This document shows, one piece after another, positions 1 to 10,023 of a stretch of DNA of 64,000 bases; positions within the stretch are counted from its first letter, which is position 1; the number at the start of each line of letters is the position of its first letter. Both the position numbers and the translations under genes were made by a program. The stretch lies in NCBI RefSeq assembly GCF_054482525.1, contig NZ_CM137006.1. One strand, given 5' to 3'. The notes below the pieces were generated by a model. The model was given only the letters and a program-made list of their open reading frames with translations, was not told the DNA's origin and did not search any database.

Positions 1-267
1 CGCCGTTTCCTGTTCGAACTTGAGGCGTTCACGTTCGGACTGATACCAGGCCTTACGGTCATGTGGCTCCATTTCTTCCAGTGATGCCGGAACGGGAAGA
101 TCAAGAAAACAGGTCAGAATGTCAGTCACCCGATAGAGTTTCAGCTTGTCATGCCCTCCGGCTGGCTGGATGTTTTTCAGCCTTGCCGCCGCAGTCTGAC
201 GACATATTCCCGCTATCGCCGCCAGTTGATTAATGTTCAGCATCAGATTTTTCAGTTCTCGATCCAT
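1..267 (-). CDS. Putative terminase small subunit / packaging HTH protein, N-terminal part (gene continues past window start)
   Basis: Manual reverse translation from ATG at 267 gives MDRELKNLMLNINQLAAIAGICRQTAAARLKNIQPAGG..., an HTH-containing N-terminus resembling lambda Nu1-type small terminases. GGAG Shine-Dalgarno lies upstream. Not in the ORF track because it is truncated. Confidence 0.4.
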   Translation of the reverse strand, partial: MDRELKNLMLNINQLAAIAGICRQTAAARLKNIQPAGGHDKLKLYRVTDILTCFLDLPVPASLEEMEPHDRKAWYQSERERLKFEQETA

Positions 268-412
268 ACCCGCTCCAGAATGTTTTAAACATGCATCTTG
301 CGAACAACTTTCAGAAGAGGTCAAAAAATGCGCTATATGTTGAGCATAAAACAAGCAAAATTAACATGCCAAAAATAAAAATACTTAAAATTCAATACAA
401 TATGAAGATGAT

Positions 413-492
413 GATGACGAATGAAAATGCAAAAACTAGCCTTTTTCCGCGCCGCTCCCGCCCCGTGGCAGACCACTCCACCGGGAGGACCC
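413..492 (-). promoter_or_regulatory. Conserved satellite element, copy 1, between the capsid terminator and the terminase-like gene
   Basis: About 72 bp (421-492) roughly 90 percent identical to 2955-3026 and in the same orientation. Contains the inverted repeat CTCCCG...CGGGAG with a nested GTGG...CCAC. Confidence 0.4.
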
Positions 493-517
493 GTAAAAAA
501 GGCGGCTGTCGCCGCCC
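493..517 (-). terminator. Rho-independent terminator after the protease-capsid gene
   Basis: Hairpin GGCGGCTGTCGCCGCC (501-516) followed on the minus strand by a T-run (A-run 495-500 on plus), directly after the capsid stop at 524. Confidence 0.55.
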
Positions 518-523
518 TTGTTG

Positions 524-2437
524 TCATGCTCCACTCGATTTCAGTAATCCGCGATAATCGAGGGCCGCGACACCTGCATCTATGCGCACTTTCCAGGCGA
601 CACCATCAACAGTAAAGCCCACCTGCTCCTCAAGATATGGCGTATCCATACCATCAAGATAAGCGACTTCTATTGTGTCCATCCCCTTAGCTGCGGCTAC
701 ATACCATTCCTTGCTATTGGCCTTATCAAGACGTGGCTCAACAATTACTTCTGCCATATCTTTCACCACGTTAATGATGCCGGGGTTCTGATTGATAGTG
801 CTCTCATCACCAACCGGAAAGACTGATGACGATGACAGAATGGCGCGACGCGCGGCAGATTCCAGCGCGGCAGGGACCAGAACAAAAGCAGGGGTAATAT
901 TCAGTGAGTCGCCGTTAGCATCCTCCTGGAGGCGCATCAGCTTACGGGCTTCATCAAGCCCCACCATGTCCATATCCTTCGCAATAAGATTTTTATGATC
1001 GGCATGGAATAACGCTTTACCATCCGTAAATTTGCCGTTGCTGGTTAACAGAAGATAAACCAGATTACCTACTGTTCTGGCGGCCGCACGCCCCATCGCC
1101 ATGGGGATTGTAGTTAACTGGGTCAGGTCATCGTTGATAATGGCCTGACGGGTAACAGAAAAAATATTACCGTATGTGGCCAGCGCAATAGGTACACCTT
1201 TATCGCTGGTGGTGATGTATTTATATTCCGCACCTTCCGGTACTTTATCCAGCTTTGAAAAACCATTCAGACCAACGCGCTTTGCTTCATGAAAGTTTGA
1301 AAGCGATCCGGTACGCGTCCATTTCTGGAACGTTTCGCCGCTGTCCTGCCAGCCTTTCAGCACTGATTTTTCAGCACCACCAGCCAGAATATGAGAAAAA
1401 TCGCTGCTGCTGTGTGTGAAAGCTGCATTAACGACCTGCGAGCGATTTAAAAAACTGCCAACACTGATACCACGATCAGTTAGTGATGCCTGGGCCATTT
1501 CAAAAAGGCTCATCATCGCGTAAGGATTTCCCCGCTCTGGGCGTTCATACCCAAGACGAGAATAAAGCCCCTGACGAATTGCATCGCCTGTTATGTTCCC
1601 GTTACCGGCATAAATATGAGTCGGGATATTTTTATTGGATGGCGTGGACTCGCGCCCCAGCTCGTTCAACAACTTTTCACGGGCCATCTCCGGTGTACAT
1701 GATGCATCCTCCAGGCACGCCATTTTGATCCCGTCGTAACGACTGCCGAACAGGCTAAACACTTCACTTATTCCGTTGATGCGCTTCTGTTCATTACCAG
1801 CAATATTGGCTGCTCCCTGTGGCGGGGTAATCATTCCTTTAATGGTTTCAGGCATGTGTGAAAAATCTCCTGTGCGTTTCGATTCAATTCGCGCCATTGC
1901 TGTGACAGATGGCAACAATTCATCAGCAAAACCGTGCTTAAGGCATTCTTTCCCGTCCATCCAGGTTTCATCTTCCAGCATGGCGGTAATTTCCTGTGCT
2001 GATTTGCCCGTTTTTCTGGCATAAGCAGGGACTAACACGGTTTCCACCTTATCCAGCAAATCAGCATAATCACGCATATCACCAGCATTTCCGCCAGAGA
2101 TACCCCACGGCTTATGTATCATCATCATGGCGTTTTCCGGCATCACAACACGATCGCCAGCCATTGCGACAACCGAAGCCATTGAAGCCGCAACACCATC
2201 GATATAAACCGTAATTTCTGCCGGATGATTCCGTAACAGGTTATAGATGGCGATGCCTTCAAACACGTCACCACCTGGCGAATGGATCCGCAGGTCGATA
2301 TGTGAGACATCGCCCAGGGCTTTCAGGTCTTCCGCAAACTGCTTCGCGGTAATACCGAAGCCGCCAATTTCTTCATAGATGGATATTTCTGCCGCTCCGC
2401 GAACACCCAGCGCCTTAATGGTGTACCAGTGATTCAT
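524..2437 (-). CDS. Prohead protease (ClpP/S14-like) fused to HK97-fold major capsid protein
   Basis: 637 aa. N-terminal 200 aa carry ClpP-like motifs (GVAASMAS with the catalytic serine context, HKP histidine). The C-terminal ~400 aa resemble HK97-family major capsid proteins. Confidence 0.7.
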   Translation of the reverse strand: MNHWYTIKALGVRGAAEISIYEEIGGFGITAKQFAEDLKALGDVSHIDLRIHSPGGDVFEGIAIYNLLRNHPAEITVYIDGVAASMASVVAMAGDRVVMPENAMMMIHKPWGISGGNAGDMRDYADLLDKVETVLVPAYARKTGKSAQEITAMLEDETWMDGKECLKHGFADELLPSVTAMARIESKRTGDFSHMPETIKGMITPPQGAANIAGNEQKRINGISEVFSLFGSRYDGIKMACLEDASCTPEMAREKLLNELGRESTPSNKNIPTHIYAGNGNITGDAIRQGLYSRLGYERPERGNPYAMMSLFEMAQASLTDRGISVGSFLNRSQVVNAAFTHSSSDFSHILAGGAEKSVLKGWQDSGETFQKWTRTGSLSNFHEAKRVGLNGFSKLDKVPEGAEYKYITTSDKGVPIALATYGNIFSVTRQAIINDDLTQLTTIPMAMGRAAARTVGNLVYLLLTSNGKFTDGKALFHADHKNLIAKDMDMVGLDEARKLMRLQEDANGDSLNITPAFVLVPAALESAARRAILSSSSVFPVGDESTINQNPGIINVVKDMAEVIVEPRLDKANSKEWYVAAAKGMDTIEVAYLDGMDTPYLEEQVGFTVDGVAWKVRIDAGVAALDYRGLLKSSGA

Positions 2438-2643
2438 TGCTCCCCCCCAGATGCAAAACCATTCTTATCAAGCCACGCGTTAACCGCGTGTCTGACAATC
2501 TGCGCCGCACCTGGTAATGGTTGGTCAGGATGATGATTTATGTGGTCGATCCTGTACTGCTTAAGGCGCATAACGGTCTGCGCATCCAGATGAACGGAAC
2601 CACCTTTTACCTCGCCTGTGTTCAGGTCGTTAATACAATTCAC
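2434..2643 (-). CDS. Small hypothetical protein upstream of and overlapping the capsid gene
   Basis: 69-aa ORF with a GTG start preceded by AAGAGGAAG, overlapping the capsid start by 4 nt. Function unknown. Confidence 0.4.
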   Translation of the reverse strand: MNCINDLNTGEVKGGSVHLDAQTVMRLKQYRIDHINHHPDQPLPGAAQIVRHAVNAWLDKNGFASGGEQ

Positions 2644-2743
2644 AGTAACTTCCTCTTACTGACTAAACTGCGCGCATTATTGATCGATAAAAGTGGTAGA
2701 TAAACATATTTCTATCATAAAAATAGATTAATCAGATTCAGAC

Positions 2744-2769
2744 ACAAAAAAGCCGGAGAGAATCCGGCA
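2744..2769 (-). terminator. Rho-independent terminator (minus strand) inside the SSB-capsid intergenic region
   Basis: Hairpin GCCGGAGAGAATCCGGC (2752-2768) followed on the minus strand by TTTTTT. Confidence 0.5.
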
Positions 2770-2954
2770 TAAATATCCCGCCATCTGAACACGTTTTGCA
2801 CAGGCAACTCCATCTGGCAGGTGAAAAACAAATTTATTTATATATTTCAATTAATTGCAAACTGGTCTAATGACAGGGAGAAAAAAATATTGTACAGGTG
2901 AAAACAGAAATAACTTTTAATTATCAATAAATTACTACACATGCTGCCGCCGCC

Positions 2955-3026
2955 ATGAAAATGCAAAAACCAGCCTTTTTCCGCGACGCTCCCGCCCCGT
3001 GGCAGGTCACTACACCGGGAGGACCC
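2955..3026 (-). promoter_or_regulatory. Conserved satellite element, copy 2, between the SSB terminator and the capsid operon
   Basis: Direct repeat of 421-492. The same CTCCCG...CGGGAG dyad is retained. Confidence 0.4.
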
Positions 3027-3052
3027 ATAAAAAAGCCGGATTGCTCCGGCTT
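3027..3052 (-). terminator. Rho-independent terminator after the SSB gene
   Basis: Hairpin AGCCGGATTGCTCCGGCT (3034-3051) followed on the minus strand by a T-run, just 3' of the SSB stop at 3067. Confidence 0.55.
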
Positions 3053-3066
3053 CTGTTACTCGTTGC

Positions 3067-3489
3067 TTAAAACGGTATGTTATCCCCGTACGGATCATCA
3101 TTTCCCGCCTGTTGTTTTGCTCTGCTCAGTGCATCAGTAGCCTGCCCCTGTTGGCCTTTTTTGCCGCCCGGTCGCGCCGTTCTCGCACTGATTACGCTGT
3201 CTGCGATAACCTGCCAGCCCTGCCGCGTCTCCCCGTTCTGTCCGGTCCACTGGCTCACCTGCATGTTACCCGCCACGCTCAGGAGTTCACCCTTGCGGTG
3301 CTTTGCCAGTGCTTCGGCCTGTCTGCCAAACGCCAGGACGGATAACCACATCGTCGCCGTTCCGTCATCTGCCTGGCTGCACGGAAGTGGGACCGCCATA
3401 CTCGCCATCGTCATTTGTGTACCCTTGCTGGTGGTCTTTAACTGCGGGTCAGCCACCAGCCGCCCGTAAGCCGCTATCTGTGCTGTCAT
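3067..3489 (-). CDS. ssb: Single-stranded DNA-binding protein (phage/plasmid type)
   Basis: 140 aa. OB-fold core WLSVLAFGRQAEALAKHRKGELLSVAGNMQVSQWTGQNGETRQGWQVIADSV parallels E. coli SSB [52 protein letters not shown]. Gly/Gln-rich linker and acidic tail DDPYGDNIPF. Confidence 0.75.
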   Translation of the reverse strand: MTAQIAAYGRLVADPQLKTTSKGTQMTMASMAVPLPCSQADDGTATMWLSVLAFGRQAEALAKHRKGELLSVAGNMQVSQWTGQNGETRQGWQVIADSVISARTARPGGKKGQQGQATDALSRAKQQAGNDDPYGDNIPF

Positions 3490-3731
3490 GCTGTCTGCTC
3501 TCCGGTTTTAACGTTGATGGTTGTCACCTGTTCCGCTTCGGCAATCTCCCGTTCTGTCAGCGTGGCAAAGTTTGCAGCTGCCGTTGTCATGAATGAGCTA
3601 ATCAGTTCGGGATGTGCTTTCGCATATCCTTCCCCGGCGTTGCGGTCGATGATTTTTATCGACACCCTTAACCAGTGTTCCGTCAAATCAAGGGCGTGCG
3701 ATTGTGATTTTTTTGTGTGCTTCGCTGTCAT
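3486..3731 (-). CDS. Small hypothetical protein between the origin and ssb
   Basis: 81-aa ORF whose stop overlaps the ssb start (ATGA). No recognisable motif. Confidence 0.4.
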   Translation of the reverse strand: MTAKHTKKSQSHALDLTEHWLRVSIKIIDRNAGEGYAKAHPELISSFMTTAAANFATLTEREIAEAEQVTTINVKTGEQTA

Positions 3732-3782
3732 AGGCTTTATCTCACAGCAGTAAATTAAAATTTTTGCGTTTTAACCCTTCAC

Positions 3783-4005
3783 CTGTTCACCTTTTGATAT
3801 TTTATCTTTTAATTCATAATGTTAAGGGGTGAACAGTTTCACAAAAACTATTCACCAACTGTTCACCACTGTTCACCCTTGAAGCTCAATAAACAATCAA
3901 AAAGGTGAACAGTGAATAGTTTGGTGAACAGTTCATAAATAACTGTTCACCCTATAACATACTGATACAAAAGATATTTATGACAGGGTGAACAGTGGTG
4001 AACAG
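3783..4005. repeat. Iteron array, putative satellite origin of replication
   Basis: Nine copies of GGTGAACAG or its complement CTGTTCACC at 3783, 3828, 3859, 3869, 3904, 3923, 3943, 3987 and 3997, separated by AT-rich spacers, immediately 3' of the replication-protein gene. Confidence 0.7.
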
Positions 4006-4018
4006 TTATTCCATAAGT

Positions 4019-5851
4019 TTAATTTTTGCTATCGTCATTAGTGACCGATACACATGATGGCATCCAGTCTTCTGATTCCTCCGTCAGTGTCACGTTTGAA
4101 CGCAAACCGTGCTTCGTTTTCCGTTTCATATACTCCCTGCCATATTCCGCCATTGCCCCCGGCATATCTTTACCGAAGCGCGTCAGTGTTACAGGTTTAC
4201 CAAACCCATGTGCCCTCATATAAGCCAGATAGGCATGATAGAGATACCTGCGTGGGCTGAATGGCACAATTTCAGCATTACCCACTAACAGGCCATCACA
4301 CATTACCGACGCCATGAGATAGCCGCAGAAGTCCACCAGCGAATCACCTTCACGCTTTATCGCGAGTGCTTCTTCTGATTTCTGCTGCTCATATAAAAGG
4401 CGTCTGGCTTCGTCCTGGTCAGCAAACCGTGTAAGCAGATGGCGAATCACTACCGCCAGCTCACCTTCTATTTTTTCCGCCAGCATTGGATCACGTTCGT
4501 TCTCCGGTACAACTTCCGAAAAATTGAATATCACCCGACGACGTGAGATCCCCCCGCTGCGGTCACTGAATGACATGGCGTTATTGTTAACCGCCAGCAC
4601 TACTGCCGGAATACGCGTTGAGTAGGGGGCTTTGTGTTTCGGGTCAATTGCCACCTTGTCACCGCCTGTAATAGCCTTAATCCCTGCCCCATCACCAGCG
4701 TAGCGGGTCATATCCGGCATGATAATCAGCGAAAAGCCAACCACTAACGCGCGTTCCCTTGCATCTTCCAGCGCCTTCATGCTTGCCGATACTGTGTTGG
4801 CCTTACCCGCCAGCATGGTGCAAATCTCCGCCATCACGCTTTTACCACTTCCCCCTGGACCTGTTACCTCAATGAATAACTGCCAGTCGTACCGGTTCGC
4901 CAGCACCATGAATAATGCAGCCAGTACGCGATCCGCCTTGCGGTCATTCTCAGCCACCGAACGGCGTAACCACTTCCAGAAATTCGGCGCATGTGTTGCC
5001 AGCGTTTCCCCCTCTGCTGGTGGGCTGAAAGGTAATTCACTGGCAATTAACAACCAGTCGTTTTTGTTATGCTCCCGAAAATTACCTGTTCTGGTATCAA
5101 ATACCCCGTTACTGAATCCAATCAGGTTACGGGCTGTATTCCCCATTACAGGCAAACTTAACTTCATGGTATCGACCGCCGATTTAATGGCGTTCTGCGA
5201 ATAGCTGATCTCCGCATCAATGAAAATCTGTGCCATAGCTCGCTGTAATTCTTTATCCTGTACTGGCTCCCATACAACGCCGTTGTAATGGTGAACAGTG
5301 TCAGAGTCAGCATGAATCGCCAGTTCACCGCCATAATGTGCCAGGAGAACTTCGCCGCGTTGACTTGCTCCCATCTGGTTAAGCGCCAGTGATGAAGCGT
5401 TATCGTCTTTTACCCGCTCTTTTTTCTTTACAGGCAGTTCAACTACCTTTTTCTTTTCCGCCAGCTCTGCCCGTTCACGTTCCAGATATTCGCGCCAGTT
5501 CTCCCGTTTCTGGCTGTGCATTCCTTCAGGGTAATAATCAGCATCCCTGACACCTGCCGCTGCCAGTTTCTGCCCGATGGTATTAACAAGCCCCGGACGC
5601 AATAACCCCGCCTGATAGAGACGCACGCGATAGCGTCCGTCCGGTACGATTTGCAGGTTGTCCAGTTCGGCAAGTTGTTGCTCTCCAAGCCAGACAGGTG
5701 GCACGTTATCGCCAGCCAGTCGCCCGTCCTGTTCCTGCCACTGATTCGCATGTGCCCACGCATCACTACCCGCAAAAATGATGACTTCCGTCATTTTGTC
5801 ACGCGGCTGGTGTTTTAAATTTGGCGCTTTTTTCATTTCTGCTCTCTCCAC
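4019..5851 (-). CDS. Replication initiator, P4 alpha-like primase/helicase family (D5_N plus SF3 NTPase)
   Basis: 610 aa with Walker A GPGGSGKS and the general architecture of phage/plasmid primase P4-family C-terminal domains. Sits next to the iteron array. Confidence 0.7.
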   Translation of the reverse strand: MERAEMKKAPNLKHQPRDKMTEVIIFAGSDAWAHANQWQEQDGRLAGDNVPPVWLGEQQLAELDNLQIVPDGRYRVRLYQAGLLRPGLVNTIGQKLAAAGVRDADYYPEGMHSQKRENWREYLERERAELAEKKKVVELPVKKKERVKDDNASSLALNQMGASQRGEVLLAHYGGELAIHADSDTVHHYNGVVWEPVQDKELQRAMAQIFIDAEISYSQNAIKSAVDTMKLSLPVMGNTARNLIGFSNGVFDTRTGNFREHNKNDWLLIASELPFSPPAEGETLATHAPNFWKWLRRSVAENDRKADRVLAALFMVLANRYDWQLFIEVTGPGGSGKSVMAEICTMLAGKANTVSASMKALEDARERALVVGFSLIIMPDMTRYAGDGAGIKAITGGDKVAIDPKHKAPYSTRIPAVVLAVNNNAMSFSDRSGGISRRRVIFNFSEVVPENERDPMLAEKIEGELAVVIRHLLTRFADQDEARRLLYEQQKSEEALAIKREGDSLVDFCGYLMASVMCDGLLVGNAEIVPFSPRRYLYHAYLAYMRAHGFGKPVTLTRFGKDMPGAMAEYGREYMKRKTKHGLRSNVTLTEESEDWMPSCVSVTNDDSKN

Positions 5852-6132
5852 GCGGCAATCATGTTTTTCAGTTCCTGTAGTTTTTTATCAACATCCATAC
5901 ATGACACATGGTTATTTCTGGAAAGCGGGATTTCCCGCCTGAATCTGCTAATAAAGATCTCCACGTTCAGCGAACTATGAAATGAATAGCCATCACGAAT
6001 AAAATACACACGGTCAAACATCAGTTCTTTTACCGTTACTCTGTTACCGTTCTTATCCAGATAAATAGCGCCGGGGATAATTTTGGGGTGTGCATAACCG
6101 CTGGCAGTCAAGCCAGATAAATATGTTCTCAT
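5833..6132 (-). CDS. Small hypothetical protein of the replication operon
   Basis: 99 aa, Shine-Dalgarno GGGGA upstream, 3' end overlaps the start of the replication gene. Confidence 0.45.
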   Translation of the reverse strand: MRTYLSGLTASGYAHPKIIPGAIYLDKNGNRVTVKELMFDRVYFIRDGYSFHSSLNVEIFISRFRREIPLSRNNHVSCMDVDKKLQELKNMIAAWREQK

Positions 6133-6138
6133 GATTAT

Positions 6139-6451
6139 TTATCCCCGATTTGAATCAGTATTCGCTTTCTTTATGGCATTTAATGCATCTGTGGCATTTT
6201 CAATGGTGCACCGTAACGAAATATCAAACTGCCCAAGCATTGCCAGTAACAAACCGATATTACCCATATCAATGCGCATAGCCTTTTCGTCATAGTCCTC
6301 ATTTTCTGACGCATGCCACATCAGGCTACCAATTGACGCAATACCCATTGATATATTGTCAGTAGCCCCATCCGCAGCGGAATAAACCTTTTTAGCAATA
6401 TCATGCTCACAGTTAAAATGCGGATTAATCAGGTACTGGTAATTTGACATA
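6139..6451 (-). CDS. Small hypothetical protein of the replication operon
   Basis: 104 aa starting [15 protein letters not shown]. The ORF-track entry 6139..6894 is longer, but its 5' extension is Pro/Arg/Leu-rich junk. The ATG at 6451 overlaps the TGA of the upstream gene. Confidence 0.45.
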
Positions 6452-6991
6452 TCAGGCATGGCACACCCCCTGGCGAATACGGGCGGCGAATACAGCAACA
6501 CAACCGGACGGGCAGCGGTTACGCGCTTCACGTTCCGTCCAGGCGGTGACGTGGATGATTTGATGGTCTGACGCGCCAAAGATGATAAAGCGCCAGAGAA
6601 AGGCGGTTTGAGAATGTACAAGGGTAGGGATAGTAGCCATGTTGGCAGCCTCCTTTGACAGTGAAGAATTTCCACCGCAGGAAACGCCAATTTCGCTGGC
6701 GGTGGACTGAACGGGGTTGGCGTAACCGGCGTCAAAGGGAACCGGCGCTTCCGAAGAAGCCCCCGCCCAGCCCACCATAACTTTGATGTGAGCGAATGCG
6801 GACGATAAAAAAGACGCTGGCGCGTCATATATCGCCTTTGACATTTCCAGGACGCCAATCCCGGCACCAGATTTTGCTGGTGCGGATAAATCATAGCCCT
6901 GGCTTGCAGTGGCGATCAACTGGTTTTTTACACCCGCTTTATTCAGGTTGTGCGAGTCCCGCCCTTGCGGGTGTGTGGTATGATTTCTCAT
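6452..6991 (-). CDS. Hypothetical protein, first gene of the replication operon
   Basis: 179 aa from ATG at 6991 with GAGG Shine-Dalgarno. This is the 3' part of ORF-track entry 6452..7741, whose upstream part overlaps the operators and the plus-strand regulator gene. Stop overlaps the next start. Ala/Gly/Ser-rich, no recognised motif. Confidence 0.35.
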
Positions 6992-7088
6992 AGCGACCTC
7001 GATACTATCGTTATCGTTGGTGGTTAGAAGCCCCGTTACTGCTCCAACAGTGCGGGGTTTCGTCGTTTCTGCACCTTGCATCAACAAG

Positions 7089-7140
7089 GTGTTGAACACC
7101 AATGTAAACTCAGGTGTTGAACACGTCAAGTGTTGAACAC
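7089..7140. promoter_or_regulatory. Three direct copies of the 11-bp near-palindrome GTGTTGAACAC (operator array) in a divergent promoter region
   Basis: Copies at 7089-7099, 7114-7124 and 7130-7140, between the minus-strand operon start (6991) and the plus-strand small gene (7191). Confidence 0.5.
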
Positions 7141-7190
7141 TTGTTTTTTTTCCTGCATACTGCATTTGTTTTTTGTGAGGGGTACACAAC

Positions 7191-7370
7191 ATGGCGACAA
7201 AAGCAGTAAACGCAAAATCACAAACAGTTGCGGCAAGGGTTCCGCATGAAGTTATGAACAATGTTGAGGCGGTAAAAATGCCTGGTGAAAGTACAGGGCA
7301 ATTTGTAACAGCAGCATTAAAGCGAGAAGTTGAATACCGCCAGCGACGCAAGGCTAAAGAGCAAGAATAA
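7191..7370 (+). CDS. Putative ribbon-helix-helix DNA-binding regulator
   Basis: 59-aa [62 protein letters not shown] found by manual translation; it is below the ORF-track length cutoff. Strand-helix-helix pattern, directly downstream of the operator repeats. Confidence 0.4.
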
Positions 7371-7427
7371 TCACTATCAGCGCTGTGGTGTGAGGTACTC
7401 CGGCGCATTGCTTTACAGGTCGGCACT

Positions 7428-7637
7428 ATGAGCAAAAAATACCTATCCACTGAAGAGATTTTCGCAGAACAACGAAGATTGCTTTTACAGAGCATTGTTG
7501 CACGCCAGAAAGAAAAGGCACACGCTAAACAAATGCCACCAAATACAGAACCAGCGCCTACAAAATTTGCGCTTGATGAGTTTCTCAATAAACAGCCCCG
7601 GGTAATGAAAGCTAACAGGAACCGCCCACCAGGCTGA
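7428..7637 (+). CDS. Small hypothetical protein co-oriented with the RHH gene
   Basis: 69-aa ORF followed by a terminator. Confidence 0.3.
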
Positions 7638-7701
7638 TCACATTGCCCACCAGCCAGCAAATCGCTATGATGGCTGGGCTTATGTTTAGTGTATTCCCAC
7701 T

Positions 7702-7733
7702 GGCGACCTCTGATCCGGGTCGCCTTTGTTTTA
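7702..7733 (+). terminator. Rho-independent terminator, possibly bidirectional between the plus-strand genes and alpA
   Basis: Hairpin GGCGACC-tctgatccg-GGTCGCC followed by TTTGTTTTA. Confidence 0.5.
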
Positions 7734-7751
7734 TGTGTCATATGCCCCCCT

Positions 7752-7961
7752 TTACGCTGCCTTGCCTGAATTAATGCGATCCCGGCTTTTAACCCATTCC
7801 ATAACCTCGGACAGCAGCCAACCTACAGAACGACCGCCCAGATTACGGCGTGACGGGAAATTCCCTTTTTTCTCCAGTTCATAGCGTGTAGTGCGACACA
7901 CTCCAGTTAACTTACGACATTCATCCTCACGGATTACGCGATCTTCATTTATTTCACGCAT
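7752..7961 (-). CDS. alpA: AlpA/Vis-family transcriptional regulator (excision activator)
   Basis: 69 aa. KSVGW...E.EW core motif and size match AlpA of CP4-57 and Vis of P4. Position next to int is typical. Confidence 0.65.
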
Positions 7962-8380
7962 ACAAAAACCTACATAAAAAATTACGTATATAAACTTTTC
8001 TCTTAGCTGTAGATATATGAGATCGGATATTACTTAGATTCTTTTTTCACCTCTTAAATTAAAAACACAACCTTGCTAAAGGCTTTGTTCGCTAAGGTTC
8101 GTAGAAGCTCGTTAGTGTTTAAAATCGTGTCACGAGTTTTTAAGCGATGCAACAAAAAATGTCGTTATTTGGCATTACGCTTGAATTATCTCATTAAAAA
8201 CAAATAGATAAACCATCAAGTGTTGGAACAATCAAGAAACAGAGAATAAAAGTTCAGAAGAAGACATTCCAATTTTTTGATGGTTGACATATATAAAGCG
8301 AAGATATTTGCAGATATTTTCCGATATTCTACGATTTATTCACGGCTGTAATCTCTTAAAGAAAAAACAGCCGTAATTTG

Positions 8381-9619
8381 TCAAGAATTTTGGGTGTAAA
8401 TTCGCGGGGTCATAACAACGATTTTTTTATCATTGTTCTGGAGAAGCTCGAGACGGTCTACCCATAGATTAAGAGCATCACGTTTTGCATCAAGATAACG
8501 GGAGTGGTTATAGACTCGTTGCATCCCCGGCATCTGGTGGGCGGTAAGCTGCTCGACAATATGCGGATCCACGCCTAAATCGTTCAGCATGGTTGTAAAT
8601 GTGTGCCGGATATCGTGTAACGTCCAGGGGGCTTGATTAATTCGTCTGTGCGCTGTTCTTCCGTACTCTGCTACCGAAGATTGTCCTTTCAGTTCACCAA
8701 GCAATAAGCCTGTGTGTCTGTTCTGCTCCACCAGTTGCGTGACGAACGGCAAAATGCTTTCCGGTATTGGCCTGAATATGGCGACCTTCGTTTTGCTGTG
8801 CTCCTTCGGTACTGTCCAGAGCATTTCTTTAAAATCCCACTCCTGCACCTCAGAGCGCCTTAGCTCAGTGGTACGGCATCCAAAAACAATCAGGAGGCGA
8901 ATTAGGGCGCTGTAGTATGGCGGGAATATTTTGTCATCCAGGGCGCGGAGTAATTCCCCAAGCTCCTTATTTGTTAGTACGCGCTCGCTCACTTCTGCTT
9001 TTTTTCCCACATCACCGACAACCATATCATCAAGAACGTTGCTGATTGCGTATCGTCGTTTTCGGCAGTACTTAAGCGCCTGTTTGCATACCTGTAGCAA
9101 AAATCCGGCAGATACTGGGCTTCGCTTTGCCATCTGGTCAAAACATGCCAACCAGTGCCGTAGCTCGCATTTTTCCAACGGCAAAGCGCCAATCTGGCTG
9201 ATTATGTGTTTATTGATCCGGCTTTTCAGTGATTCGTAGTCAGTGCGCTTTTCCTTTGCATACGATTCAAGCCAGTAAGTGAGCGCTTCCTTAACTGTCA
9301 CGGGGGCTAACGCATCCTGTACAGCACGATTAAGCTCATAGCGCGGATTTTTCCCCTCAGCCAGCCAGGCGCGACACTGTGCTGCTTTTTCCCTGGCTGC
9401 TTTCAGGCTCAGATCGGGATAATTGCCCAGTCTCAGACGTTCCGGTGATACCTGCCTACCAGTTCCGGCCCTGTAAGTGAAATACCAGGTTAACAGGCCG
9501 CTGGTGGAATGTCTTACGCTAAGATTGCCACCGTCATTAAAAAAGGCGTTTTTTGTGGTTGGTGATCCGCTTAATTTTCGTAAAAGAGTGTCGCTAAGTC
9601 TATGAATTGCGCTGCTCAT
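8381..9619 (-). CDS. int: Tyrosine site-specific integrase (P4-type)
   Basis: 412 aa. C-terminal catalytic motifs HDIRHTF and RVYNHSRY (tyrosine nucleophile context), N-terminal arm-binding region. Confidence 0.85.
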   Translation of the reverse strand: MSSAIHRLSDTLLRKLSGSPTTKNAFFNDGGNLSVRHSTSGLLTWYFTYRAGTGRQVSPERLRLGNYPDLSLKAAREKAAQCRAWLAEGKNPRYELNRAVQDALAPVTVKEALTYWLESYAKEKRTDYESLKSRINKHIISQIGALPLEKCELRHWLACFDQMAKRSPVSAGFLLQVCKQALKYCRKRRYAISNVLDDMVVGDVGKKAEVSERVLTNKELGELLRALDDKIFPPYYSALIRLLIVFGCRTTELRRSEVQEWDFKEMLWTVPKEHSKTKVAIFRPIPESILPFVTQLVEQNRHTGLLLGELKGQSSVAEYGRTAHRRINQAPWTLHDIRHTFTTMLNDLGVDPHIVEQLTAHQMPGMQRVYNHSRYLDAKRDALNLWVDRLELLQNNDKKIVVMTPRIYTQNS

Positions 9620-10023
9620 GTTTCGCGTTTCCGGTCATCAAAATTAACTACACCATTGACTACACCGTGCATCGTACAAGGGCAAACCGTGACGAACAAG
9701 AGCGAACAAGGAAAACAAAATTTTCCTTTATAATCATAGCGATGAATGCACACAAAACACTACCACGAACACCCGCGAACACTAGATGATAAATAACTAT
9801 CATCTATCGTTGGCATCAGCGACATCTGTCACATTCCTGTCAATAGCGTTAACTGCTTCAAATTTTTGATTCATACCTGCCCCCTGGCCCCTGTCAAATG
9901 CTTGACGGCTCGCCCTAATTCTCTAAATTGTATTTCTAGAGTTGGCGAGGTTTTGAACAGCCCCCTCTCTGACCCCGGTTTATTCCATCTTACTTGTATA
10001 AGATTTGCGAAGGATGTCGAAGC

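Follow-up and report, generated by a model that had tools for sequence, protein, structure and literature searches.

P4-type iterons immediately downstream of rep form the probable replication origin of an E. coli PICI inserted between cspD and clpS

The analyzed stretch of DNA (64,000 nt of contig NZ_CM137006.1, referred to below as the window) contains nine exact copies of the 9-mer GGTGAACAG at positions 3783-4005, between a replication gene (rep) and a gene encoding an 81-aa protein (Table 1). The stop codon of rep (ORF 4019-5851, minus strand) is 13 bp away from the array, whose other end lies ~45 bp short of the next same-strand gene start (3731). Degenerate copies bring the number of iteron sites to 11-12 within ~230 bp, and together with these copies and the flanks the functional unit occupies about 3765-4013. 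The recount agrees with the original prediction of nine copies in both orientations separated by AT-rich gaps, with five copies on the plus strand, four on the minus strand, and spacers of 73-83% AT.

The clustering is specific to this locus. An exact match search of the 64-kb window yielded a single further copy of GGTGAACAG, at position 5290 within rep. The 8-mer GGTGAACA was found ten times, compared to 2.0 expected occurrences, and none of 100 shuffled sequences had as many. A scan of the whole window with the 6-mer core produced one cluster with nine matches per 250 bp, the runner-up having three; thus, neither the exact nor the 6-mer core scan revealed a second iteron cluster elsewhere in the 64-kb window.

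Table 1. Coordinates of the iteron array, the rep gene and neighboring features in the window
Feature	Position	Strand	Remarks
Iteron array	3783..4005		9 exact GGTGAACAG
Exact GGTGAACAG, plus strand	3828, 3904, 3923, 3987, 3997	+	
Exact GGTGAACAG, minus strand	3783, 3859, 3869, 3943	-	
Degenerate iteron CCCTTCACC	3775-3783		GGTGAAGGG read on the minus strand (3783-3775); distal module
Degenerate iteron CTATTCACC	3848-3856		Minus-strand reading; distal module
Degenerate iteron AGTGAATAG	3911-3919		Proximal module
Distal ori1-like module	3765..3886	-	Alignment A1, 67% identity to P4 ori1
Proximal ori1-like module	3892..4013	+	Alignment A1, 61% identity to P4 ori1
AT-rich spacer between inverted iterons, candidate DNA-unwinding element	3792..3827		36 bp, 83% AT
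AT-rich spacer between inverted iterons, second candidate unwinding element	3952..3986		35 bp, 74% AT
Island-encoded SSB	3067..3489	-	TIGR00621 above cutoff; phrog_44
81-aa gene directly downstream of the array	3486..3731	-	phrog_1231
rep, P4 alpha-like initiator/helicase	4019..5851	-	610-aa ORF
C-terminal winged-helix origin-binding domain of Rep, aa 502-598	4058..4348	-	PDB 1KA8, E=1.8e-24; Pfam Pox_D5
Beta-hairpin "wing" of Rep, aa 576-585, KRKTKHGLRS	4097..4126	-	Model strands 576-579, 582-585
D5_N + SF3 helicase core of Rep, aa 150-500	4352..5404	-	Pfam D5_N, DUF5906, PPV_E1_C
N-terminal domain of Rep, aa 6-149	5405..5836	-	Replaces the P4 primase region
DUF4222 gene directly upstream of rep, overlapping the rep start	5833..6132	-	Same arrangement in EcCICFT073
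PICI integrase	8381..9619	-	410/412 aa identical to the EcCIIHE3034 integrase
att core ATAACTATCAT	9793-9803		Island right end; Table S1, PMC6092414

Instead of being a plain series of repeats, the array is a pseudo-palindrome composed of two inverted ~120-bp modules (inverted repeat I1), 69% identical to each other in alignment A1. The distal module, read on the minus strand, starts with direct iterons at 3877-3869, 3867-3859 and 3856-3848 (the last one degenerate), followed by an inverted iteron at 3828-3836, a 36-bp AT-rich spacer, an iteron at 3791-3783, and the degenerate GGTGAAGGG at 3783-3775. The proximal module has iterons at 3904, 3911 (degenerate) and 3923, an inverted iteron at 3943-3951, a 35-bp AT-rich spacer, and iterons at 3987 and 3997.

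The AT content of the segment 3878-3903 is 73%, the GC content of the whole window being 49.7%. When all 30-bp segments of the island are ranked from the least stable duplex upward, the spacer 3792-3827 comes fifth and the other N35 spacer eighth; the instability of 3792-3827 is ~3 SD above the island mean, with some other AT-rich island segments being as unstable as the array spacers, or more so. Among possible host-factor sites, no IHF consensus and no GATC were found in the region 3600-4100, and no DnaA box with at most one mismatch within the array. The scan of positions 3400-4300 detected neither a sigma-70-like promoter nor a terminator-like site, and hence the 81-aa gene and ssb are probably transcribed through the array.

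Two other features of the locus were considered and set aside. The entire array folds into a single long hairpin (z=-9.1), but a structured RNA was rejected: the Rfam matches were far below threshold and corresponded to eukaryotic miRNA hairpins, as they reflect the palindromic nature of the array. The inverted pair GGTGAACTG-N22-CTGTTCACC at 5290-5329 inside rep was considered as an internal origin comparable to P4 ori2, and was likewise rejected. This pair encodes GEL...TVHH, stays constant in a related locus with switched iterons (L064, see below), and is missing from other Rep families; judging from these sequences, it is probably a coincidence.

The true start of Rep is probably Met6 (ATG 5836), which yields a protein of 605 aa, in agreement with homologues and with RefSeq, where the product is named "DNA primase family protein". 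Residues 150-600 of Rep align with residues 320-771 of P4 alpha with 51% identity over 452 aa and one single-residue gap. The P-loop region (DUF5906) contains the Walker A motif GPGGSGKS, and the NCBIfam model TIGR01613 ("phage/plasmid primase, P4 family") matches Rep with a score under the cutoff. The AF2 model of the C-terminal domain has pLDDT 77. The match to the staphylococcal primase chain 7OLA is restricted to the helicase core of Rep (E=2.7e-10). The Pfam PPV_E1_C match reflects a helicase core related to those of SV40 large T antigen and papillomavirus E1, two SF3 helicases whose origin-binding domain is likewise separate and which act at dyad origins with AT-rich elements; still, this is a mechanistic analogy alone, as the origin-binding domains and origin sequences are unrelated.

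The N-terminal part of the protein is different. P4 alpha has a zinc-finger/TOPRIM primase region that is absent from Rep, and residues 1-319 of alpha have no counterpart there. The N-terminal ~150 aa of Rep match no Pfam or NCBIfam family; the model of this domain has an alpha/beta fold of ~130 aa with weak TOPRIM-fold similarity, and the catalytic motif is absent. The domain is rare, being present in 92 clusters among 1.84 billion representatives. Hence, two further parts of the original prediction hold: the neighbor of the array is an initiator of the P4 alpha type, as shown by the 452-aa alignment and by the match of its C-terminus to 1KA8, and the canonical primase is missing from it, since alpha 1-319 is unmatched and the N-terminal domain belongs to no Pfam or NCBIfam family.

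P4 alpha binds type I iterons at ori and crr, and the minimal region of P4 ori1 is 123 bp. The P4 GenBank record labels TGTTCACC as "ori type 1 repeat" at both sites, with six repeats of this type in the origin (9310-9413) and ten in crr (4291-4590), the latter lying directly 3' of the alpha gene. This annotated record bears out the proposal that GGTGAACAG contains the P4 type I iteron. The iteron of P4 ori1 recurs in each module of the array (GGTGAACAG / TGTTCACC), and so does the ori1 layout of three direct iterons, one inverted iteron, an AT-rich spacer of ~35 bp, and two direct iterons. The start-to-start spacings are 10/11/22/43/10 in P4 ori1, compared to 10/11/21/44/8 in the distal and 7/12/21/43/10 in the proximal module. 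Moreover, the helicase and origin-binding domains of the two initiators are homologous.

The five-way alignment A1 comprises both array modules, the P4 ori1 region (L001 9300-9425) and two crr repeats. The crr repeats share only the right two-thirds of the module; P4 ori1 and each of the crr repeats contain an equivalent of the N35 spacer. Identity in the non-iteron columns is 39-58% overall and 39-47% in comparison with P4 ori1, in AT-rich DNA. As most of the identity comes from the iterons, the shared architecture is a firm statement, while common descent of the spacers is a weaker one.

The arrangement of these sites in the two replicons differs. P4 ori1 is one module, situated ~2.3 kb upstream of alpha and working with crr, whereas here two inverted modules abut 3' of rep; accordingly, the ori1 and crr clusters of P4 are kilobases apart, while the window has a single cluster with adjacent modules. 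Similarly to the array, P4 crr is made up of a pair of ~120-bp units, which carry type I iterons and the motif TGTTCACC-N35-GGTGAA, but the crr units are direct repeats 60 bp apart with many degenerate iterons, in contrast to the inverted units and mostly perfect iterons of the array. Each crr unit has five iterons, (+)(-)(-)N35(+)(+), and lacks the three direct iterons of the array modules. There is a terminator between crr and alpha, and no terminator-like site at the array. Upstream of alpha P4 has the Cnr gene (DUF5375), while the island has DUF4222 in this place and, according to the annotation only, no DUF5375. At its outer edge, P4 crr also has a sequence identical to the DnaA-box consensus, TTATCCACA (L001:4281-4289), with no equivalent near the window array. 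A literature search with TGTTCACC returned only unrelated papers, apparently through incidental sequence matches.

The proposed relation to P4 ori and crr is supported, with refinements. In layout and sequence the array resembles ori1, but its position is that of crr and not of ori, since crr, like the array, lies directly 3' of the initiator gene. Replication of the P4 type, which had also been proposed, is retained for the initiator and the iteron, both of which are P4-type, but not for the element as a whole, which is to be classed as a PICI rather than with the P4-like satellites.

The element hosting the array is a PICI (phage-inducible chromosomal island), a small phage parasite of ~10 kb located between cspD and clpS in E. 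coli. A 99.8%-identical copy of the island, also of ~10 kb and between clpS and cspD, is present in E. coli EC13, where its genes encode an integrase, an HTH regulator, an Icd-like protein, an ash-family pseudogene, DUF4222 and Rep, and past rep there follow the array, a small ORF, ssb, a ClpP-protease/major-capsid fusion, and DUF1441. The EC13 annotation and the att match show the context characteristic of PICIs: an integrase, an alpA-type regulator, unidirectional transcription, an att site, and a size of ~10 kb. Positions 1-9803 of the window correspond to the island minus ~0.7 kb of its left end; in EC13 two genes are annotated in the missing part, one of the DUF1441 family and one for a hypothetical protein, with no repeat annotation.

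The core components of P4-like satellites, as defined by SatelliteFinder, are int, alpA, epsilon/ash, alpha, psu, delta, and sid. The island annotation contains no psu-delta-sid capsid-hijacking operon, and has the ClpP-protease/major-capsid fusion and DUF1441 instead. The fusion gene (524-2437, minus strand) encodes a 637-aa protein combining a ClpP-like prohead protease with a major capsid protein (NF045540, 904 bits) and adjoins DUF1441; the island has no portal, separate terminase or head-tail genes. In the region 6139-7741 (minus strand), two long overlapping ORFs (251 and 429 aa) are probably spurious; the RefSeq genes annotated there are a hypothetical protein, Icd-like, an ash-family pseudogene, and YlcI/YnfO. 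Both ash and Icd are P4-associated gene families.

Read on the opposite strand, the att core ATAACTATCAT corresponds to the one given for the cspD-clpS site of EcCIIHE3034 and EcCI18098, and the former is among the PICIs that the listing of integration sites assigns to cspD-clpS (Fillol-Salom et al. 2018, PMC6092414). EcCIIHE3034 has the same att site and a near-identical integrase, but separate capsid, decoration protein and terS genes and a different rep-ori. As the EcCIIHE3034 integrase and att accompany a different rep-ori module, the window island is a mosaic, and the difference in gene content between the two islands implies that modules are exchanged between PICIs. The arrangement of the 81-aa gene is repeated both in EcCICFT073 and in EcCIIHE3034.

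The rep-ori of the window type was found in 593 of 5,426 complete E. coli genomes (~11%), also at other integration sites and with other integrases. In the same set, the EcCICFT073-type ori is present in 556 genomes, and P4 ori1 in 1,005 (18.5%). The capsid-forming island vB_KppS-Ant has a Rep with 74% identity and the same array layout.

The closest studied system is EcCICFT073, whose Rep is 49% identical to that of the window over its full length (596 aligned positions), including the N-terminal domain. The genes follow one another as in the window island, namely DUF4222, rep, the small ORF and ssb; in EcCICFT073, a gap of 288 bp separates rep from the small ORF and contains ~12 iterons in two inverted sets, as in the array. 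The differences are in the iteron, which is GGTAGACA/GGTAGATA and not GGTGAACAG, in the wing (ITRKVKGVTQTN), and in the packaging and morphogenesis genes, which are unlike those of the window island. According to the plasmid experiments described for EcCICFT073, a plasmid with its rep and ori persists at the restrictive temperature (Fillol-Salom 2018, PMC6092414); in this assay, deletion of rep leaves no colonies, whereas deletion of ori leaves significantly fewer colonies but not zero (PMC6092414). As the equivalent region of EcCICFT073 supports plasmid maintenance, the array belongs to a known kind of origin. In particular, it shows the features of a Gram-negative PICI replicon: the ori is directly 3' of the initiator gene, inverted iteron sets flank AT-rich DNA, and Rep is homologous to a characterized Pri-Rep. 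Rep-dependent autonomous replication and induction by a helper phage are known from EcCICFT073 only.

Variation of the array was analyzed in 80 related loci from IMG/VR with Rep proteins 88-100% identical, which yielded 57 distinct array sequences. Iteron positions are essentially invariant across these loci. Common polymorphisms (present in at least three of the 57 sequences) affect 3 of 97 iteron columns, compared to 28 of 126 spacer columns (Fisher p=2e-5). The low polymorphism of iterons among related sequences is evidence for selection, supportive rather than decisive, since part of the conservation is due to the shared ancestry of 80 close relatives.

The concerted changes of the iteron itself seen in several loci weigh more as evidence. 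In L064 (L064:4694-4950, IMG/VR UViG 2784132061_000002) all site positions are kept, but the iteron is AATGAACAG and all sites read (A/T)ATGAACAG. Its Rep is otherwise 95% identical, with the substitutions R577K, K578R, K580T, H581A and L583V in the wing, and the C-terminal differences reach also residues 592-608. No array of the L064 type was found in the 5,426 complete E. coli genomes, the query matching only the standard type with 80% identity. In L103 the iteron is GGTAGACA, (G/A)GTAGACA, and the same hairpin segment has a five-residue insertion. P4-like loci with the wing KRRKNQG instead of KRHTKQG have the iteron AGTGAACAG. In L112, on the other hand, iterons drift to GGTGAATAC, mixed with GGTGAACAC, while the wing is unchanged, and hence the wing is not the sole determinant of specificity. 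Given the structural model and these few independent switches, the beta-hairpin wing is a candidate for setting the iteron specificity at least in part, and may be the reader of the iteron 5' GG.

Taken together, these observations suggest, with a probability of about 0.85, that the array is the cis-acting, Rep-dependent replication origin of the PICI inserted between cspD and clpS. A likely cis-acting origin had been predicted originally, and this assignment is reinforced by EcCICFT073, where a region of the same architecture and position is functional in the plasmid-maintenance assay.

The same nucleotides could be read in another way, as a crr-like auxiliary site, that is, an enhancer or a copy-number control element acting via looping or handcuffing by Rep, with the strands opened elsewhere. 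The array does occupy the position of P4 crr, crr repeats do match the right two-thirds of the module, and P4 crr itself is required in cis without being the start site. Still, we consider such a role unlikely, as the window has no second iteron cluster, the pair at 5290-5329 is neither conserved nor co-switched in L064, and the left ~0.7 kb of the island, as annotated in EC13, consists of two genes without a repeat feature. Moreover, both modules match the full ori1 layout, including the three direct iterons missing in crr, and the fragment with EcCICFT073 rep and ori is, as described for that plasmid, sufficient for maintenance.

It is very unlikely that the array has no origin function and is just a transcriptional operator, bound by Rep or by another island protein, for rep or for the 81-aa and ssb genes. 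Plasmid iterons often serve also in autoregulation, and the array is situated between co-oriented genes in an interval without a terminator-like site; however, no sigma-70-like promoter was detected at 3400-4300, the array is at the 3' end of rep and not at its promoter, and its architecture is that of P4 ori1 and of the tested PICI ori. Besides, the operator and origin roles are not mutually exclusive. Hardly credible is a decayed relic, such as the remnant of a captured P4-like element: the mosaic island, with the EcCIIHE3034 integrase and att next to a different rep-ori, would allow for it, but nine copies are perfect, the Rep ORF is intact, the architecture recurs at several integration sites, being kept in 593 of the 5,426 complete E. 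coli genomes, and iterons have fewer common polymorphisms than spacers. The concerted iteron switches also imply selection, and thus argue against a relic.

If the array is the origin, initiation could proceed as follows. After induction and excision, the C-terminal winged-helix domain of Rep would bind the 11-12 iterons; neighboring iterons are 10-11 bp apart and therefore lie on one helix face. At the inverted iteron pair around each ~35-bp AT-rich spacer, Rep would oligomerize, melt the spacer, and load as a hexameric helicase. Due to the two-fold symmetry, two helicases could be loaded in opposite directions, which would result in bidirectional replication. The unwound strands would be coated by the island SSB, encoded two genes downstream. 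As Rep has no recognizable primase, priming by host DnaG is probable, being the simplest candidate, with an uncharacterized activity of the N-terminal domain as the other option. In this scheme we infer Rep binding, spacer melting, double-hexamer loading and the primer source alike.

P4 replication depends on a pair of distinct sites, crr and either ori1 or ori2, and on alpha acting as a primase. Since the island has a single site and no recognizable primase, the P4 mechanism cannot carry over unchanged. In particular, P4 replication was reportedly found by Tocchetti and colleagues in 1999 to depend on the alpha primase and not on DnaG, and so the PICI would differ from it at the priming step.

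The location of a PICI origin 3' of rep and the P4 type I iterons were known beforehand. The features that appear to be new are a PICI class with the exact P4 iteron, the colinearity of the array halves with ori1, the co-variation of the wing and the iteron, and a weak fold assignment for the N-terminal domain. The string GGTGAAC is absent from the supplements of Fillol-Salom 2018 (PMC6092414), but this iteron class may have been already drawn in Fig. 2a of that paper. A survey of 2023 suggested that the primase-replicases of satellite families are analogues and not homologues; contrary to this, the sequence comparison of both the protein and the cis-site argues that the replication modules of P4 and of E. 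coli PICIs are homologous.

A broader proposal is possible, if doubtful: E. coli PICI origins could be dyad fusions of two P4-ori1-type modules in homologous replicons, at which two SF3 hexamers would be loaded head to head, taking over in cis the part that looping between ori1 and crr plays in P4, with cross-firing between P4 and PICIs and with the wing as a portable specificity cassette. As the iteron is the same and the wing near-identical (KRKTKHG compared to KRHTKQG), P4 alpha and PICI Rep could fire or titrate each other's origins, and the shared iteron predicts cross-talk between P4-like satellites and this PICI class. If true, this would mean cross-activation or incompatibility at the level of replication between satellite families with different helper phages, the wing keeping co-resident satellites orthogonal. 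The probable origin and the likely specificity determinant are now located for a class of PICI replicons present in ~11% of complete E. coli genomes. The cloned array together with Rep may constitute a minimal replicon, and the natural iteron/wing variants (GGTGAACAG, AATGAACAG, GGTAGACA, AGTGAACAG) are ready material for swaps in studies of winged-helix DNA recognition.

Some related loci have additional features near the origin. In L112, a second copy of the array start appears 315 bp downstream with its sites in unchanged order, six of them within the analyzed 450 bp past the rep stop, and the sequence suggests a tandem origin duplication. In L117 and L119, approximately ten tandem decamers CATCTCACTG follow right after the origin array, 300-400 bp past the rep stop. 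The distal spacer of EcCICFT073 (L248:12160-12200) is rich in GC, with a perfect hairpin of 8 bp, TTACTGGC...GCCAGTAA, so that an AT-rich spacer is present in the rep-proximal module only. Finally, in strain CREC-629, six places match the window-type ori query.
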